Source: a phage. From it: 64,000 nt of DNA. The translations under genes were made by a program, and so were the position numbers. The DNA lies in NCBI GenBank assembly GCA_032986305.1, contig GCA_032986305.1_3672.1. The stretch is one strand, 5' to 3'. Under the pieces are notes generated by a model. That model saw only the letters and a list, made by a program, of their open reading frames with translations, was not told where the DNA came from and did no database searches. Shown here in pieces: positions 24,021 to 55,559 of the stretch (positions within the stretch are counted from its first letter, which is position 1; each line of letters starts with the position of its first letter).

Positions 24021-24827
24021 TTAGATAAAACGCTTGAACATAGAAGGTGATGAGATTGATGGAATCACACAAGGAAGTGCTACCTCCTCTTTCTCCAGGA
24101 AATTAATTGCAGAAGCTACACAGTCAGCCCAGTCGTCTTTTCTGTTAAATGTTGATCTTTCCCCGTTGAATTTTTCAAGTTCAGTCAGAAATGCTTCCAG
24201 AGTATCAGGATGGAAACTGGATTTTACAATCCTAACCATTCCTTGTTGGGCAAGATTGGCAAAAGGTGAGAACCTTGTCAGTTTAGATTTGTTGGAAGGC
24301 ATTGGGTCTTCTTCAACCCTAAACCCTTCGGCGAGCAAGGATCTGGAGGATGTTAAGAACTCACTCTTACCTGCCTGACCGGGGTCCACAGAGAATACGA
24401 TTATACAATCATCACCATCAAACTGCGCCTGTTTCCTGATGATCACATCTCGTTCACCAGCCTTTTTACAGAACTTGCCTTCCAGACCTGTGGAATACCT
24501 CCCGTCATCCACGTTTTCAGGACAATAATCCCCTGACAGGTAATAAAAGCCGTCGCTATCTTTACTTACCTTAACACTGGCGGTAAAGTCAGGAAATTTA
24601 TTACCGGAAGTTCTGTCGGTTCCTGCCTTATCCCATGCCCTGCAAGATACTGATCCAAGGGGTACTCTATCGGCATCACGAAGGAAAGATCTTTGAAAAT
24701 AGTTTGCACCCTCAGGCTTTGCAAACCAGTTGCCATGAAGAAGCTGGGCTTTTTCAAGCTCGGGCAGACCTTCAAGAAAAGCAAGGTATTCTGGGTTGTC
24801 TCTCAAGCAGACAGGATTATCGAATCC
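24021..24827 (-). CDS. terminase large subunit, exon 2 (nuclease domain); 5' boundary approximate
   Basis: 261-aa ORF; continues the reading frame of exon 1 after removal of the intervening intron. Confidence 0.65.
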   Translation of the reverse strand, partial: GFDNPVCLRDNPEYLAFLEGLPELEKAQLLHGNWFAKPEGANYFQRSFLRDADRVPLGSVSCRAWDKAGTDRTSGNKFPDFTASVKVSKDSDGFYYLSGDYCPENVDDGRYSTGLEGKFCKKAGERDVIIRKQAQFDGDDCIIVFSVDPGQAGKSEFLTSSRSLLAEGFRVEEDPMPSNKSKLTRFSPFANLAQQGMVRIVKSSFHPDTLEAFLTELEKFNGERSTFNRKDDWADCVASAINFLEKEEVALPCVIPSISSPSMFKRFI

Positions 24828-25804
24828 TTATATTCAAAGGTGGTCGCAACACCACCTTCCGCACCTTTACGTGCTGCTGCATGTTACCATGCAGAGTAGA
24901 CTATATCACCACCCATTTCAGGGTGCTTCGCTTTTCGAGCGCCATAAGCTTGCGCCCTACTCCCTCTCGGGATAGTCGTTGAACTACATTACCAATCGTA
25001 ATTGTTTGAAATATAGGTGTAAGTCTTACGGTCTTTTATTCCTTTAACAACACTAAAACTTACTCCCCACTTCTTAGCTATTTTATTTACACACAAGACC
25101 TTATCACTAAGATCCTCGCAGATACCTATTATCTTGTGCTCACTTATCCGATTAGAGGTTGGCACTTTTCTAAAGTTAAACTCTTTAGAAATATCTGGGT
25201 ATACTGAGCCATTCTTTATACCACTTACAAGTGGTTGATTGACACCAAACATTTCACAAATGTCTTTTACCCTTGCGCCTTGCTCTAACAGCCTACATAT
25301 TTCAAGAGCAGTGGCATCATCCAGGGACCTGTATTTATTGACATAGTCCTTTTTAAGTCCCATTTCATGAGCGTGATGTGTGTTTTCCTCAGGCGTTGTC
25401 CACTCAAGGTTCCATGCGGCGTTATTCAACTTATTACCATCTAGGTGGTTTACTTGAGTTTTCACGCTGGGATTGTCATTATCAACAAAAGTCATAGCAA
25501 TCACTCTGTGAACGAGCACTTGGAACTTTTTACCGTCCTCGCACAAAGTTACCATAGCATAGCCAGTCTTTTTCTGCACATTAGGATGGAGGAATTTATT
25601 AGAATACAGACTGTAAATTCTGCCATCGTATGTAGCACAATAATGATTGTAGCCTAAAAAGCCTAAATTTTTCATTTCAAACATCTCCCTACTACAGGTT
25701 CGGAAGGGTAATTATAGCTGCTGATTGTCCGTTTAGCAATCGGATTTCCCAGCAATTAACGAAGTTATTCGACGTGCATTTCTGCACGAAGCCACTATCA
25801 TTTA
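24828..25804 (-). mobile_element. group I intron in terminase large subunit gene, carrying an HNH homing endonuclease ORF (boundaries +/- ~20 nt)
   Basis: R-like GTTCAACGACTATC (reverse of 24962-24975) and S-like GATATAGTCT (reverse of 24897-24906) core elements; 3' core nearly identical to the nrdD intron at 53500-53545; interrupts a single terminase reading frame. Confidence 0.65.
24989..25675 (-). CDS. HNH homing endonuclease (intron-encoded)
   Basis: motif ..VHRVIAMTFVDNDNPSVKTQVNHLDGNKLNNAAWNLEW.. (HNH_3-type); ORF lies inside the intron; stop 12 nt before the R element. Confidence 0.7.
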   Translation of the reverse strand: MKNLGFLGYNHYCATYDGRIYSLYSNKFLHPNVQKKTGYAMVTLCEDGKKFQVLVHRVIAMTFVDNDNPSVKTQVNHLDGNKLNNAAWNLEWTTPEENTHHAHEMGLKKDYVNKYRSLDDATALEICRLLEQGARVKDICEMFGVNQPLVSGIKNGSVYPDISKEFNFRKVPTSNRISEHKIIGICEDLSDKVLCVNKIAKKWGVSFSVVKGIKDRKTYTYISNNYDW

Positions 25805-26547
25805 ATGGTTGCGCCTATAAACGAGAATGACAACGGTCTTGGCTTGATCTCCACACCCAGTCCGTTAACCGTGGTGTATTTCTCTATCAACTCTTCTTTA
25901 GAGTCTCCCCAAATAAATTCACCGTCGCGTCGGATAAAATATCTTTTCTTACCGCATTTCTCCGGATCTGGATACCCTTCATCGTCCAACCACCATCTAA
26001 CCAGTTTGGCAAGCATGTGTTCTGAATCGGGGTTACAGCTGATAACCATTCTTGATGGATACTTTGACTGAGATCGCAGACGAGACATCAGATAGTCTAT
26101 CTGCTCCCATTCGAACTGCGTTCCCTCATCGAAGCAAACCATGGTGTACTCAAGCCCTTGATGGTTAAGCTTATCTTGTACATACTCCATGTGGCAGTAT
26201 TTTACAACAGCTCCCTTTTTGCTCCTATCCCACTTGCCAGTGTTCGGATCAAACCGTGGAAAAATGAACTTATGATCCTTCTCTCTGAACTTTGGCTTAA
26301 TGTTTTCAGGCAGATCACTATAAATAGCTACTGCTTTAGGCCATAGTCCACCCTCACCTTCCAACTGTGGGGTTGTTCTTCGGAACATAACCACAGAGCT
26401 GTGGGGGTCATCAATAATTTTAAGCGGCATCAACTGCAAGAGGAACGACTTGCCAGACCCTGCGGCACCGCCGATTACCAAAATATCTGCATCATTTTCG
26501 AGGATCATCTTCTGCTTTTCAGAACACGGTCCGTAAATCTTAGACAT
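25805..26547 (-). CDS. terminase large subunit, exon 1 (ATPase domain); 3' boundary approximate
   Basis: Walker A GGAAGSGKS near the N-terminus; ORF ends at a stop lying just inside the intron. Confidence 0.7.
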
Positions 26548-27649: not shown

Positions 27650-27726
27650 GTGGTCTCCACGGAGTGATTCGAACACTCGACCTCCTGATCCCAAATCAGG
27701 CGCTCTACCAAGCTGAGCTACGCGGA
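27650..27726 (-). tRNA. tRNA-Pro (anticodon UGG)
   Basis: hand-folded cloverleaf: acceptor CTCCGCG/CGTGGAG, T-loop TTCGAAT, anticodon loop TTTGGGA, CCA encoded. Confidence 0.8.
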
Positions 27727-27737
27727 GTATTTACTAT

Positions 27738-27812
27738 TTGGTGGCCCTGGGTGGAATTGAACCACCGTCTGGCGATTATGAGTCGCTTGCTTGAACCTTC
27801 CAGCTACAGGGC
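27738..27812 (-). tRNA. tRNA-Met (anticodon CAU; elongator or Ile-lysidine type)
   Basis: acceptor GGCCCTG/CAGGGCC, T-loop TTCAATT, anticodon loop CTCATAA, CCA encoded. Confidence 0.75.
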
Positions 27813-27813
27813 C

Positions 27814-27889
27814 TTGGTGCTGATGGCAGGACTTGAACCTGCAACCTATTGATTACAAATCAATTGCACTACCAATTGTGCTACATCAG
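27814..27889 (-). tRNA. tRNA-Thr (anticodon UGU)
   Basis: acceptor GCTGATG/CATCAGC, D-stem GCAC/GTGC, anticodon loop TTTGTAA, T-loop TTCAAGT, CCA encoded. Confidence 0.8.
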
Positions 27890-27894
27890 CAAAA

Positions 27895-27993
27895 AGGTGC
27901 TAGGCGGTGGAATCGAACCACCTATGTATTCAACGACTACCTCGTCTATTTTCAGGATTAAAAATCCTCGCCCTTGCCAAAGGGCTTACCTAG
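27895..27993 (-). tRNA. atypical tRNA-like gene, possibly tRNA-Lys (anticodon UUU) with ~30-nt extra region; may be a pseudo-tRNA
   Basis: perfect 7-bp acceptor pairing GCTAGGT/GCCTAGC, canonical T-arm GGTGG-TTCGATT-CCACC, D-stem GCCC/GGGC, 4-bp anticodon stem with loop TTTTTAA, but ~99 nt long and no CCA. Confidence 0.35.
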
Positions 27994-28091
27994 CTCAGTA
28001 TGTTGACCATGTTGCTAGTCGGCGATGACGACTGTAACATTTGATAATCCGGTTCTGCTTCCGGCTTTCGCTTAATTACAAGGTCAACAAT

Positions 28092-28182
28092 GTGGCGGAG
28101 AGTAATGGAATCGAACCATCATCGAGTCATCCTCAATGGGACGGTTTTCAAGACCGCTTGAGCACCATTGCTCCCTACCCTC
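28092..28182 (-). tRNA. tRNA-Ser (anticodon UGA), long variable arm
   Basis: acceptor GGAGGGT/ACTCTCC, anticodon loop CTTGAAA, extended variable arm, discriminator G, CCA encoded. Confidence 0.7.
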
Positions 28183-28189
28183 CTTTATA

Positions 28190-28218
28190 AATTATACTGA
28201 TAATGACACTGATTTTCG
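28190..28218 (-). promoter_or_regulatory. sigma70-like promoter upstream of tRNA-Ser
   Basis: minus strand TCGAAA-N17-TATAAT, -10 ending 7 nt before the tRNA 5' end. Confidence 0.4.
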
Positions 28219-28296
28219 AGCAGTTAGTGACTAGTATAAACGACGATAAATATCAATGCCATTATCTGTATTATTTACGCATCTAAAAATATAAAT

Positions 28297-28383
28297 TTGG
28301 TGGGGAGTGGTGGAGTCGAACCACCCGAGTCGCAATGACAATAGATTTACAGTCTACACCGCTACCTCTACGGGATAACTCCC
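28297..28383 (-). tRNA. tRNA-Tyr (anticodon GUA)
   Basis: acceptor GGGGAGT/ACTCCCC, anticodon loop CTGTAAA, long variable arm, T-loop TTCGACT, CCA encoded. Confidence 0.75.
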
Positions 28384-28387
28384 CAAT

Positions 28388-28462
28388 TTGGCACCCCGTA
28401 CTGGACTCGAACCAGTGTCAACGGCTTAGAAGGCCGCTGCTTTATCCACTAAGCTAACAGGG
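28388..28462 (-). tRNA. tRNA-Arg (anticodon UCU)
   Basis: anticodon stem-loop GCGGC-CTTCTAA-GCCGT, T-arm ACTGG-TTCGAGT-CCAGT, CCA encoded. Confidence 0.7.
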
Positions 28463-28559
28463 CACTGGGTGGCTTTCTTTTACACCTTAGCCGCCAGAAA
28501 AGGTGGGAGACCATGTTTACAATATTACACTGTTAAGCAAAGTTTGTCAAGAAAATATT

Positions 28560-51118: not shown

Positions 51119-51397
51119 ATGAGCTGTGAAAAATCTTTTTTCTTTATTATTTACGGTAAAGATAACTGCCCACATTGTGTAAGAGCAAAAGAATTTGCAG
51201 TCAGTAAAGGTCTGCCTTTTGTATATAAGACACTTGGCGAGGGTTACACAAAAGAAGAGCTTATTGAGAAGTGCAGTCCAATCGTACCCAGAACGTTGCC
51301 GCAGATCTTCTTAGAAAGCAATCTTGAAAGTGCCCATATAGGCGGTGCCGACGATTTCATCTCTTTTGTTAAGAATGGTTTTGGAGAGAAAAAGTGA
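51119..51397 (+). CDS. glutaredoxin/NrdH-like redoxin
   Basis: CPHC active-site motif (..YGKDNCPHCVRAKEF..). Confidence 0.7.
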   Translation: MSCEKSFFFIIYGKDNCPHCVRAKEFAVSKGLPFVYKTLGEGYTKEELIEKCSPIVPRTLPQIFLESNLESAHIGGADDFISFVKNGFGEKK

Positions 51398-52254
51398 AAG
51401 TTGTAAAACGGGACGGTAGAGAAGAGGTCTATAACGGAATTAAGGTGATCAAGGCGGCAGAGTCCGCCTTACTTGAGTCTGGACATACTGAAGAAGAAGC
51501 TTACCGGATCGCCTGCGCGGTTAATGAAGTTGTTGCTAACAATCTACCAACCGACCAGTGCACGATCTCTGTAAAAAATATCCATATCCTTGTTGAAGAC
51601 GCTCTTATGGATATGGGTTTAAAATGTGCAGCCAGAGAATACATCCAGTATAGGCAGACAAGAGATAATAACAGAGAGGCAGGTGGAAAACTGCTTGCAG
51701 ATATTAGTGGCTTCTTGGATCGCACTTGTGATGAATTTACAAAAGAAAACGCAAATAAGCCTACCAATCATGTACACACTCATCGTGACCTGCTTGCAGG
51801 CATCCTTAGCAAACACCTTGCATCAACACAGATCCTGCCAGACCGTGTCTCAGAAGAGCACAATAAAGGCTTCATCCATGTGCATGATCTTGACTACTTG
51901 ATCAGTCCGTTAACAAACTGTTGTTTGGTAAATTATCCAGATATGTTGGAAAACGGATTCAACATTGGTAACGCCCATGTCAGTAAGCCGAAGTCAATAG
52001 GGGTTGCAACAACAATCCTTAGCCAAATTTCTAGTGCAGTAGCTAGTGCTCAGTATGGGGGTCAGACTATGAGCCATATTGATCATTATCTGGCACAGTA
52101 TGCTGAGGCGACCTATGAGAAGAATCTTAAATTTTGCCAGGAACACTGGTTGCCAGATGCTGAGACTGTTGCAATGCAAATGACAGATAAAGACGTATTT
52201 GACAGCATGCAGACTTTGCTCTATCAAATCAATACGTTAACCTCTGTCAACGGT
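51394..52254 (+). CDS. nrdD: anaerobic ribonucleotide reductase NrdD, exon 1 (GTG start)
   Basis: N-terminal ATP-cone-like MKVVKRDGREEVYNG..; reading frame continues into exons 2 and 3 after intron removal. Confidence 0.7.
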
Positions 52255-52568
52255 TAACAAACTGGCCGTTTTAAAACTCTGCTAACCTCAGTATGAGGGG
52301 TCAGCTGATCGCTGGCTAACGGGGAACGCTAAGGCGAAAGCTATGCCAATCCCGTGACTAGCTTCACAAGGAGTGAGGCGGTTGTAACGACTAACCTTTT
52401 GGTGTAGGGATTATGGAAGATTCCGAAACGCAGAGGTCTGATTAAGAATCACACGGTGTGATTTCAGGCAAGAGATAGTCTGGCCTTGTGGAAACATAAG
52501 GGTGGGGACCGCAAACCCCTTTTATCACATTAAGTTTAGGTCTGGACACCTCAGTATTTGGTAGAATG
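52255..52568 (+). mobile_element. group I intron 1 in nrdD (ORF-less, ~314 nt)
   Basis: non-coding insertion between in-frame nrdD segments; R-like AACGACTAACC (52386-52396), S-like AGATAGTC (52473-52480); 5' exon ends in GGT, intron ends AATG; homologous to the other two introns. Confidence 0.55.
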
Positions 52569-52811
52569 ATTACCAAAAACTACTTGAAAGTCCACAAAAT
52601 GGGTCTTGGTGAAGAATGTATCACACCTGTGTTCCCTAAAGTGCTGTTCTTCCTAGAAGAGGGTGTCAACATGAACCCTGGAGATCCTAACTATGATTTG
52701 AAACGTTTAGCTCTGGAATGCTCTGCAGAGCGGATTTATCCTGACTTTGTTTCTGTTCCACTAAATCGTAAAGTGACAGGCTCGACAGATGGCAAAGTAA
52801 CGAGCATGGGT
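52569..52811 (+). CDS. nrdD: NrdD exon 2
   Basis: encodes ..VFPKVLFFLEEGVNMNPGDPNYDLKRLALECSAERIYPDF.. matching recalled class III RNR sequence; ends in GGT before intron 2. Confidence 0.6.
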
Positions 52812-53573
52812 AAACTATAACTGCTCATGTAAAATCTATCTAAACGGGGAAACTCCAGAACGGACAATCCCGTGCTAAACGTAACAGAACTCCTGACCAA
52901 GAGGAGTCCTGAAATGAGAAAACAAATTCGTGATTTTGAAGGTTATGAAATTGACGAGATGGGCAATGTTTATTGCACCCGCTACGAAAATGAAAGAATT
53001 ATTCATTCGTGGGAAGAGATAAACACAGGTTACCGTCTTGTTAGGATACGCAAGAACAAAAAGACTGTTTGCCTAAGGGTTCACAGACTTGTTGCTGAAG
53101 CGTTCTTACCAAATCCAGACAATTTACCCTATGTTAAGCACAAAGGGGACAACAGGAAAGATAACAGTGTATACAACCTTGAGTGGGGAGCTTGCCCAGA
53201 CAATACGCAAGAAGGATACAACAACAACTGTTATGCTTTTTACACAAGATGCCACGGTGTGAAAGCCACCAACAAATTAACTGGTGAGGTTTTCCACTTT
53301 AAAAGTCTGAGATGTTGTGCTGATGTTTTAGGAGTGGATAGAAAAAGAATATCTGCTATCCTGAAACGTGGTGCGCCTAATAACTATGATTACGAGTTCT
53401 GTTACGAAATGCCTAACGACTAACCGTGATGAATGTAGCGGTGTAGGGTGTAAGCCGATGACACTCGAAATGGTAGACACACTAAGTGTGAAGATATAGT
53501 CTGATCTGCATGGGAACATGCAGCAGCACGTAAAGGTGCGGGGGTGGACTTGCGAACCACCCTGAACATAATG
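52812..53573 (+). mobile_element. group I intron 2 in nrdD, carrying an HNH homing endonuclease ORF
   Basis: R-like AACGACTAACC (53415-53425), S-like AAGATATAGTC (53491-53501); 3' core near-identical to terminase intron; exons rejoin as ..TSMG|CRSFL.. Confidence 0.65.
52915..53423 (+). CDS. HNH homing endonuclease (intron-encoded)
   Basis: GAGGAG RBS; motif ..RVHRLVAEAFLPNPDNLPYVKHKGDNRKDNSVYNLEW..; stop codon lies inside the intron R element. Confidence 0.7.
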
Positions 53574-54536
53574 TGTAGAAGTTTCTTATCGAAATATAGC
53601 GACCCTGTAACAGGCGAGGAGAAATACCTTGGCAGATTTAACTTAGGCGTTGTTAGCCTTAACCTGCCAATGATTGCGGCAAAAGCCAAGACGGAAGGTG
53701 TTGATTTCTTTGCAGTTCTTGACGAATACTTGGATCTTGCATACGAGGCTCACCTTGTAAGGGTTAATCGTCTAAAAGGAACAAAGGCAGGGCAGAACCC
53801 CATCATGTGGTGTGAAGGCGCTCTTGCTCGCCTGGATCCTGAAGAGAGTGTTGATAAACTCTTCTATGACGGGTACGCTTCCATCAGTATTGGGTATATT
53901 GGTGTGTATGAAACCTGTCAGATTTTGGGTAGAGAGGGTGACAAGGCTTTAGCTCTTGGAATCCTTCAGCACATGAGAGATGCTTGTGAGCGATACAAGA
54001 AGGAAAGTAGACTAGCGTTTAGCTTGTACGGCACTCCTTCTGAGAGTCTATGCTATAAAGCTGCAACCTGTCTGGATCGTGAATATCCGGAAGTGTTGAA
54101 GCACGAGCATGAATATCTCACCAACAGTTTCCATCAGCCAGTATGGATAAATAGCTCTCCTTTTGATAAGTGGGAGTATGAGGAAGGTTTTGCTATGATC
54201 TCCTCTGGTGGCAACATCGGATACGTAGAAACACCTAACCTGAAAAACAACCTGGATGCTTTAGAGGCTCTTGTTGACTTCGGGTATAAACATATTATGT
54301 ACTTCGGTATAAACCAGCCTGTTGACCAATGCTTCAAGTGCGGTTTCCAGGGAGAATTTAAAGCCTCTCCAAGAGGTTTTATATGCCCTTGTTGTGGAAA
54401 CCATGAGGAGGGAACGATCAGTGTAATTAGACGTGTGTCTGGATACCTTTCCAGTCCTAACTCCCGTCCTTACAATAAAGGTAAGCAAGCGGAAGTTATA
54501 GAACGGGTTAAGCACTATGGAAGTTGTAGTTGCTGA
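53574..54536 (+). CDS. nrdD: NrdD exon 3 (glycyl-radical C-terminal part)
   Basis: CRSFL..GRFNLGVVSLNLPMIA, C-terminal Cys cluster CFKCG..CPCCG and glycyl-radical-like RRVSGYL. Confidence 0.7.
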   Translation, partial: CRSFLSKYSDPVTGEEKYLGRFNLGVVSLNLPMIAAKAKTEGVDFFAVLDEYLDLAYEAHLVRVNRLKGTKAGQNPIMWCEGALARLDPEESVDKLFYDGYASISIGYIGVYETCQILGREGDKALALGILQHMRDACERYKKESRLAFSLYGTPSESLCYKAATCLDREYPEVLKHEHEYLTNSFHQPVWINSSPFDKWEYEEGFAMISSGGNIGYVETPNLKNNLDALEALVDFGYKHIMYFGINQPVDQCFKCGFQGEFKASPRGFICPCCGNHEEGTISVIRRVSGYLSSPNSRPYNKGKQAEVIERVKHYGSCSC

Positions 54537-54539
54537 TAC

Positions 54540-54569
54540 TTGACAGAAGCCACAAGGATGTGGCATACT
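54540..54569 (+). promoter_or_regulatory. sigma70-like promoter
   Basis: TTGACA-N18-CATACT. Confidence 0.4.
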
Positions 54570-54602
54570 TGGCTAATCTATGAGAACCAAGAGGGATCAA
54601 AG

Positions 54603-55559
54603 ATGCCTAGAGGAAAACAACTTACAACTGAAGAATTTACAAAAAGAGCTAGAGAAGTACATGGCGATAAATATGACTATTCAAAAACCGTATATAAAAC
54701 TGCTAAAAGTAAGGTTGTAATTGTATGCCCTGTTCATGGTGAGTTTACGCAGATCGCTGGACATCATATCCTTGACGGTAGTGGGTGTCCTAAGTGTGGT
54801 AGAGTGCCAGTAGGCAATAAGCTTAGAAACGATTCTAGTGATATTATCAAAAAATTTGTAAAAATCCACGGTGACACCTATGATTATTCTAAGGTTGAAT
54901 ATGTTAACTATAAAACTCCTGTAAAAATTGTATGCCCTGAGCACGGAGTGTTCTTGCAATCCCCATCTAACCATTTGAAAGGCCAAGGGTGCCCTGAGTG
55001 TAGTAAACTCATTAGCGCAGCAAAAAGGAATAAAGGCCCTGAATTCATAGAAAGAGCCAAAGAAATCCATGGCGATAAATATGACTACTCTTTTGTAGAT
55101 TATATGACTTGCGAAGATAAGGTAGAGATAATCTGCAACACTTGTGGAAATCACTTCACCCAGACACCTTCTTGCCACCTGTCTGGTCGTGGATGCCCTA
55201 AATGTGCCAAAAACGGTTTCTTATCTCACAACTATGGGAAGCTTTACCTCATGGTTGATAACTTAGAAGCGCCAACACTTATGAAGATTGGTGTGAGCGT
55301 CAATGTAGAAGCGAGGAAGGGAAGGATATTAAGAGCATCCAAGAAGGCTGGTGCAGGTATTTATGATCTCCACATAGTAAAAACATGGGGCGGATCGACT
55401 GAAAACATGCTGAGTGTAGAAAAATCTGTGCATGAAGCCTTCAATAAGTATAAAATAAACTTCTCTAAAGTATTTAGTGGAAGCACTGAATTCTTTCACT
55501 ACAGACCTGAAGTGTTTAGCATAGTGGAAGCAGTATACAAAGAGATCTGTGGTAAATGA
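54603..55559 (+). CDS. free-standing homing-endonuclease-like protein: three zinc-finger repeats plus C-terminal T5orf172/GIY-YIG-related domain (tentative)
   Basis: three repeats of HGDKYDYS..C(P)..HG.F..H..G.GCP.C; C-terminal ..GKLYLMVDN..KIGVS..HIV..; between nrdD and nrdG. Confidence 0.45.
   Translation: MPRGKQLTTEEFTKRAREVHGDKYDYSKTVYKTAKSKVVIVCPVHGEFTQIAGHHILDGSGCPKCGRVPVGNKLRNDSSDIIKKFVKIHGDTYDYSKVEYVNYKTPVKIVCPEHGVFLQSPSNHLKGQGCPECSKLISAAKRNKGPEFIERAKEIHGDKYDYSFVDYMTCEDKVEIICNTCGNHFTQTPSCHLSGRGCPKCAKNGFLSHNYGKLYLMVDNLEAPTLMKIGVSVNVEARKGRILRASKKAGAGIYDLHIVKTWGGSTENMLSVEKSVHEAFNKYKINFSKVFSGSTEFFHYRPEVFSIVEAVYKEICGK

Follow-up and report, generated by a model that had tools for sequence, protein, structure and literature searches.

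An HNH homing-endonuclease gene within a probable group I intron of the large terminase gene in an rV5-like phage

Introduction

The question raised by this locus is whether the gene for the large terminase subunit (terL), a standard marker for phage taxonomy and for the prediction of packaging mechanism, is here a single gene interrupted by a removable element or a set of separate genes. In the 64,000-nt stretch of phage DNA that we analysed (the window; contig GCA_032986305.1_3672.1 of assembly GCA_032986305.1), three consecutive open reading frames (ORFs) on the minus strand encode the ATPase half of terL, an HNH protein and the nuclease half of terL. The source is a Vequintavirus, that is an rV5-like E. 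coli myophage, with 2.6 kb around the insert being 99.0% identical to ECML-10 and 98.8% identical to rV5. We conclude that the insert is very probably a group I intron that carries an HNH homing-endonuclease gene and sits between the ATPase and nuclease domains of terL.

This intron is already known and is of a common kind of selfish phage element. It was described for rV5 in 2013 in a section headed 'Introns in terminase' (Kropinski et al., Virol J 2013;10:76, PMC3606486), and the same paper credits D. Shub for help in placing the intron and gives the group I intron of LL-H terL as precedent. RefSeq gives gp065 (terL) of rV5 (NC_011041) as a join of three segments, and the annotation of the BASEL phage RudolfGeigy has the same form. 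Automatic gene callers split or drop terL at this place: ECML-10 (OL631479) has no annotated terL, the region goes under 'DNA endonuclease I' in PDX (MG963916), and two or three separate 'terminase' genes are listed for JES2013 (NC_022323) and 19-1-2 (OK181858). The main value of an exact junction (25805/25804 and 24826/24825) therefore lies in annotation, as it lets the correct 515-aa TerL be written.

Results

To locate the coding parts of the gene, we used domain matches, which revealed Terminase_6N upstream of the insert, Terminase_6C downstream of it and HNH_3 within it, all on the minus strand (Table 1), so that the separation of the ATPase and nuclease halves by about 1 kb with an HNH ORF, as claimed in an initial annotation of this DNA, was confirmed. 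The two terminase matches make up the T4-type TerL domain pair, which in FV3 belongs to one polypeptide. The upstream ORF ends at a TGA 5-7 nt beyond the exon 1 junction, directly after a conserved ...SFSFIGAT motif. That ATPase and nuclease might normally be two genes in this lineage had been raised as an objection; its close relatives FV3 (NC_019517), where terL is one contiguous gene for 515 aa, and JES2013, which is likewise contiguous at the 25805/24825 site, speak against this. Aligning FV3 terL to the window leaves a single gap, namely the 979-nt insert, which is exactly missing from FV3 and JES2013, and the flanks are 98.5% (exon 1, as far as the junction) and 98.2% (exon 2, from the junction on) identical to FV3. 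Across the site FV3 reads ...GGCGCAACAATC TTCGATAATCCT..., and the window reads ...GGCGCAACCAT^TAAATGATAGTGG... on entering and ...TATAAGG^ATTCGATAATCCT... on leaving the insert (carets mark splice sites); the corresponding fragment is ACAATCTTCGATAAT in intron-less, FV3-type terL and ACCAT...ATTCGATAAT in the intron-bearing type.

Two rules for group I introns set the junction, in that the final U of exon 1 takes part in a U.G wobble pair in P1 and the intron terminates in G, which puts the 5' splice site after U25805 and makes G24826 the last intron nucleotide before the 3' splice site. Measured against this, the limits first proposed (24828-25804) hit the 5' splice site exactly and missed the 3' site (24826) by 2 nt, within the margin of about 20 nt given with them. 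The predicted ligated junction is ...GCAACCAU^AUUCGAUAA..., or in shorter form GCAACCAU^AUUCGAUAAUCC, and the joined exons come to 1548 nt with the frame kept (ACC AU^A UUC, Thr-Ile-Phe) and with neither frameshift nor stop. Comparison of the joined-exon translation with an intact large terminase, as the initial annotation had suggested, came out in its favour: the product has 515 aa, 514 of them identical to FV3 TerL, with D318E the sole difference. An exact-sequence look-up of this spliced TerL found no identical deposited entry. Shifting both splice sites by 1 nt leaves the protein the same (AUA or AUU, both Ile), so the junction given here is preferred over the shifted one because of the U.G/terminal-G rule only, the protein being unable to separate them. 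As an arithmetic check, the annotated terL joins span 2846 nt in rV5 (1548 + 979 + 319) and 2135 nt in RudolfGeigy (1548 + 268 + 319).

Table 1. Positions of terL, intron, ribozyme and tRNA features in the window.
Feature	Position	Strand	Description
Upstream ORF	26547-25798	-	249 aa; Pfam Terminase_6N, 62.3 bits
terL exon 1	26547-25805	-	N-terminal ATPase domain; codons 1-247 and 2 nt of codon 248
Group I intron (probable)	25804-24826	-	979 nt; IA-type core with P7.1/P7.2; within codon 248
5' half of ribozyme	25804-25685	-	Helix model on window sequence; compensatory changes in every helix; Rfam alignment of ORF-less allele
P1 5' strand	CCAU 25808-25805 (exon 1), U 25804 (intron)	-	P1 = CCAUU/AGUGG
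Internal guide sequence	25796-25792	-	AGUGG
P2	25788-25773	-	CGUGCA/UGCACG
P3 5' strand	within 25766-25754	-	CUUCGU/GCGAAG
P4-P5-P4'	25754-25719	-	P4 UGCUGG/UCAGCA; P5 UCCG/CGGA
P6/P6a 5' strand	25717-25707	-	P6-P6a CUAUA-A-UUACC/GGUAA-UGUAG
HNH homing endonuclease ORF	25684-24989	-	696 nt, 231 aa; in P6a loop; frame differs from exon 1
3' half of ribozyme	24993-24826	-	Sub-threshold Rfam match, covariation, helix model
P6a/P6 3' strand	24993-24984	-	GGUAAUGUAG; includes the UAA stop of the ORF
R element/P7	24984-24973	-	GUUCAACGACUA; P7 GACUA/UAGUC, pseudoknot with P3
P7.1	24972-24961	-	UCCC-GAGA-GGGA
P7.2	24957-24937	-	GGGCGC...GCGCUC
P3'	24931-24926	-	
P8	24925-24910	-	
S element/P7'	24907-24897	-	GAUAUAGUCUA
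P9	24894-24877	-	
P9.1	24874-24861	-	
P9.2	24856-24839	-	
Terminal G (omega G)	24826	-	
terL exon 2	24825-24021	-	Final nt of codon 248 and C-terminal RNaseH-like nuclease domain
Downstream ORF	24806-24021	-	261 aa, TTG start; Pfam Terminase_6C, 30.6 bits
tRNAs at threshold	27654-27727, 27742-27813, 27818-27890, 28303-28382, 28392-28463	-	Rfam
Weaker tRNA-like matches	27898-27994, 28097-28183	-	Rfam

Evaluating the insert as RNA, we found that a scan of the window at Rfam gathering thresholds returned tRNAs only, five of them in a minus-strand cluster at 27654-28463. The gathering score of Intron_gpI (RF00028) is 50 bits, and a permissive local scan gave matches below it in the 3' half (24877-25115, 35.3 bits, E 7e-7) and the 5' half (25453-25814, 21.4 bits, E 0.01) of the insert. 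The covariance-model check that accompanied the initial annotation thus fell short for the window copy and succeeded for the 268-nt ORF-less allele of RudolfGeigy and C7, which matches the full model at 95.6 and 87.5 bits (E 3e-24 and 8e-22). The window copy stays under the threshold because the ORF puts a 693-nt gap or loop into P6a and thereby breaks the model. In alignment the ORF-less core equals the window core except for a few substitutions outside P6, and a short hairpin (GCCUGAAUAUUCAGG) serves as its P6 where the window has the P6a stem and the 696-nt HNH ORF. We rejected the 35.3-bit match as a complete intron in itself, its P1-P6 part being spurious and drawn from ORF sequence.

The resulting helix model (Table 1) includes the R and S core elements that had been noted from the letters alone, and its P6-P6a stem closes the loop that bears the ORF. 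A chance 7-bp pairing, CCGUAAG/CUUAUGG, was discarded as P3, since the ORF-less allele and covariation identify CUUCGU (25764-25759) as the true partner. A putative P10 of 3 bp would form between AUU, the first nucleotides of exon 2, and GAU in the guide sequence. Two extra hairpins, P7.1 and P7.2, lie between P7 and P3', which is the mark of subgroup IA, to which the T4 introns belong. By blastn, the 3' core is similar to sequence within the T4 nrdB gene, an SPbeta-type gene for the ribonucleotide reductase (RNR) alpha subunit and nrdD of phi92, matches consistent with placement in IA, and also to sequence in or adjoining the DNA polymerase genes of several phages. Within IA we take the intron to be IA2, from its helices, interpreted after Michel and Westhof (1990), rather than from a subgroup-specific model.

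To ask whether this structure has been conserved, we aligned six homologues (the window, Avunavirus 19-1-2, Justusliebigvirus C3, Pseudoalteromonas phage J2-1 and the RudolfGeigy and C7 mini-introns) over the 13 helices and 74 pairs of P1-P9.2, and took as control the same structure with its 3' partners slid by 1-3 columns, together with 500 shuffles. Standard pairs filled 98.3% of cells versus 33.5-46.5% in the slid control, a percentage that is biased upward as there are only six sequences and the structure derives from one of them. The stronger figure is the count of compensatory pairs, with 28 of 74 changed on both sides versus 2-6 in the slid control. None of the 500 shuffles reached the observed value for cells paired, both-side changes or covariation score, and three did so for further pair types. 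The P7 and P7.1 stems are invariant across the six and so uninformative for covariation; P7.2 has compensatory changes. The splice-site U.G pair in P1 is invariant in all six, including J2-1, whose intron lies at a different terL site and whose remaining three P1 pairs have changed in step with its exon. All six introns also end in G (...AAGG^A, ...AAGG^A, ...AAAG^A and ...AACG^A in four lineages). The proposal that the insert is a group I intron is thus upheld by the ORF-less allele above the Rfam threshold, by covariation among six homologues and by a U.G/terminal-G junction that restores TerL.

The ORF looped out of P6a has two candidate starts, an ATG at 25684 that gives 231 aa and an ATG at 25675 that gives 228 aa, the latter being chosen by most gene callers and better spaced from an upstream GGGAG. 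In T4 intron ORFs a hairpin hides the ribosome-binding site. A comparable masking hairpin (CCCU.../AGGGAG, 25708-25685) was predicted in three lineages here, with a stability no greater than that of shuffled sequence (z -0.19, +0.18 and -1.16). Residues 57-102 of the protein match Pfam HNH_3 (PF13392) with a score of 28.0 bits, above the 24.8-bit cut-off, and its C-terminal helix-turn-helix matches stay narrowly under theirs (HTH_23, 24.0 versus 24.6 bits; HTH_7, 20.7 versus 23.8). Residues 11-154 align, with an E value of 3.1e-11, to the HNH endonuclease I-HmuI that an intron of phage SPO1 encodes (PDB 1U3E), and include the motif VNHLDGNKLNN...NLEW. The sequence is identical to that of rV5 gp066 (YP_002003568.1), annotated 'HNH homing endonuclease'.

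Comparing records, we found three states at this one site among near-identical phages of one genus. The intron with its ORF (979 nt) occurs in 14 records holding at least 80% of the 2.6-kb query, the ORF-less intron (268 nt) in 9 records that include the Vequintavirus phages RudolfGeigy, C7, C9 and JEP1, and the empty site in, for example, FV3, JES2013 and phiWec189. In the seven genomes tabulated, all five intron-bearing alleles (window, rV5, ECML-10, RudolfGeigy and C7) have ACC AU^A at the junction and both intron-less ones (FV3 and JES2013) have ACA AU^C. The exon differences at -3 (A versus C) and +1 (C versus A) are both synonymous, and the intron-bearing C-3 betters P1 (with G) as A+1 betters P10 (with U). 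Co-conversion during homing and selection for splicing, singly or jointly, would account for this pattern, as could selection for resistance to the endonuclease. A related intron with an HNH gene is present at the homologous terL site in Avunavirus (78% identity) and Justusliebigvirus (67%), a spread across genera that would be the expected footprint of a homing element targeting a conserved coding motif, IFDNP. About 18 records among these groups are labelled UNVERIFIED 'Campylobacter phage' (MG0656xx); in sequence they match E. coli Vequintavirus or Justusliebigvirus at 97-99% identity, and their taxonomy lines place them there.

A second terL intron site, at about 26122 on the minus strand and inside exon 1, is empty in the window. 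At this site rV5 and RudolfGeigy have an ORF-less group I intron of 320 nt (Rfam 84-85 bits; 84.9 in rV5), and in JES2013 it is occupied by 884 nt of inserted sequence that include an endonuclease VII ORF.

Elsewhere in the window, nrdD, the gene for anaerobic ribonucleotide reductase (51394-54536, plus strand), is interrupted twice relative to the uninterrupted 2124-nt nrdD of rV5, and both inserts are probably further group I introns. The first (52254-52510) has 257 nt and no ORF, and matches Intron_gpI over the full model span at 29.2 bits. The second (about 52812-53608, or some 0.8 kb) carries an HNH ORF at 52872-53423 whose product is 28% identical to that of the terL intron, and has a 3' core at 53418-53523 (Rfam 35.3 bits); its 3' boundary is approximate, the adjoining exon having diverged over about 35 nt. 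Directly after nrdD lies a 339-aa ORF (54540-55559, plus strand) with DUF723/treble-clef zinc finger repeats and a T5orf172/MUG113 (GIY-YIG-like) domain, which looks like a free-standing homing endonuclease judging from its domains. Similarity to rV5 stops at about 54571, and the ORF seems to be absent from rV5 there.

Discussion

Could terL here do without splicing? If the HNH ORF were a free-standing gene, the ATPase and nuclease halves would be translated apart and then assembled, as has been described (PMC7344957) for NrdA in Aeromonas phage Aeh1, where mobE splits the gene. Consistent with this, an in-frame TGA lies a few nt into the insert, the TTG ORF at 24806-24021 spans most of exon 2 and some GenBank records hold two separate 'terminase' genes. 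Yet the exon 2 boundary has no start codon, and TTG 24806 lies 19 nt inside the exon, so that a product starting there would be without the conserved FDNPVC. Moreover, the sequences on either side of the ORF make up a complete group I core, which exceeds the Rfam threshold in the allele that lacks the ORF and has been maintained by compensatory changes, and relatives retain a 268-nt ORF-less version at this site, where a free-standing endonuclease gene would leave none. We therefore regard a split gene as most improbable, and we give as little credence to a decayed, non-splicing relic that would make this terL copy a pseudogene. Although the window copy falls under the Rfam threshold and the loss of the ORF in some relatives shows that the element can decay, its core helices, U.G pair and terminal G are all intact and the exons are undamaged, with a product matching FV3 TerL at 514 of 515 residues. 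The intron is also 99.8% identical to that of rV5, a propagated lytic isolate, and ECML-10 and PDX are among further deposited isolate genomes with this arrangement. No second terL was apparent in the stretches of sequence that we read. Removal at the protein level, as an intein, might come to mind, as homing endonucleases occur in inteins too and related phages have inteins in other genes, but it is refuted by the reading frames: exon 1 and the ORF are separated by stop codons, and the ORF starts and stops independently in a frame that differs from that of exon 1 (26547-25684 = 863, not a multiple of 3). Pfam also finds no intein domains.

In the intron reading, which we retain, terL would be transcribed as a precursor in which the intron folds into a P1-P9.2 ribozyme core. 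An external guanosine would attack after U25805, the U of the P1 U.G pair, and the freed exon 1 would then attack after the terminal G at 24826, to yield the ...ACC AU^A UUC... mRNA for the 515-aa TerL. We infer that the intron functions from its anatomy and from the viability of carrier isolates, and since isolates with the intron allele are viable, a dependence of packaging on splicing necessarily follows. In a mixed infection, the I-HmuI-like endonuclease may cut or nick intron-less terL near the IFDNP-coding site, and repair of the cut allele would copy the intron in. Indirect signs of such homing by the HNH protein are the coexistence of full, ORF-less and empty alleles of one site and the occurrence of the same element at the homologous terL site of three genera. 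Together the three states neatly illustrate, in nature, how a homing intron is gained, degenerates and is lost, a cycle that is itself well known.

HNH proteins are reported to stimulate terminases in HK97-like phages (Kala et al. 2014, as cited in PMC7344957), and one could imagine that the HNH protein also acts in packaging here, or that splicing times TerL production. We think either very unlikely. Neither ORF nor intron seems to be needed, given that ORF-less and intron-less alleles occur in nearly identical phages.

The closest known system is rV5 (NC_011041, gp065/gp066), which has the same element at the same site, with an intron 99.8% identical, an identical HNH protein and exons 98.7% identical; it differs from the window in its additional ORF-less terL intron at about 26122. 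The ORF-less Vequintavirus allele shares the site, the ACC AT^A TTC junction and, bar a few substitutions, the core, but has a short P6 hairpin and passes the Rfam threshold, whereas the window copy with its ORF does not. Among phage IA-type introns more widely (T4 nrdB, td and nrdD, SPbeta bnrdE and the SPO1 DNA polymerase gene), the P1-P9 core, P7.1/P7.2 and the R and S elements are shared with the window intron, an ORF is likewise looped out of a peripheral helix, and I-HmuI of SPO1 is homologous to the window HNH protein. The host genes differ, being terL in the window and genes of nucleotide metabolism or replication in T4, SPbeta and SPO1.

Interrupted terL genes have been reported in many other papers. 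In Pectobacterium phage CB7, splicing of a terL intron has been proven by RT-PCR (PMC7344957); that intron follows about codon 128, whereas ours lies within codon 248, so that with its different site CB7 stands as a parallel case and not as experimental backing for the window intron, for which we found no RT-PCR, cDNA or homing demonstration in the literature. Group I introns also occur in terL of Lactobacillus phage LL-H (Mikkonen and Alatossava 1995) and of Staphylococcus Kayvirus, again at sites other than that of the window. What LL-H, CB7, Kayvirus and the window have in common is that a group I intron, frequently carrying an HNH gene, splits terL, such that packaging would depend on splicing in each of them.
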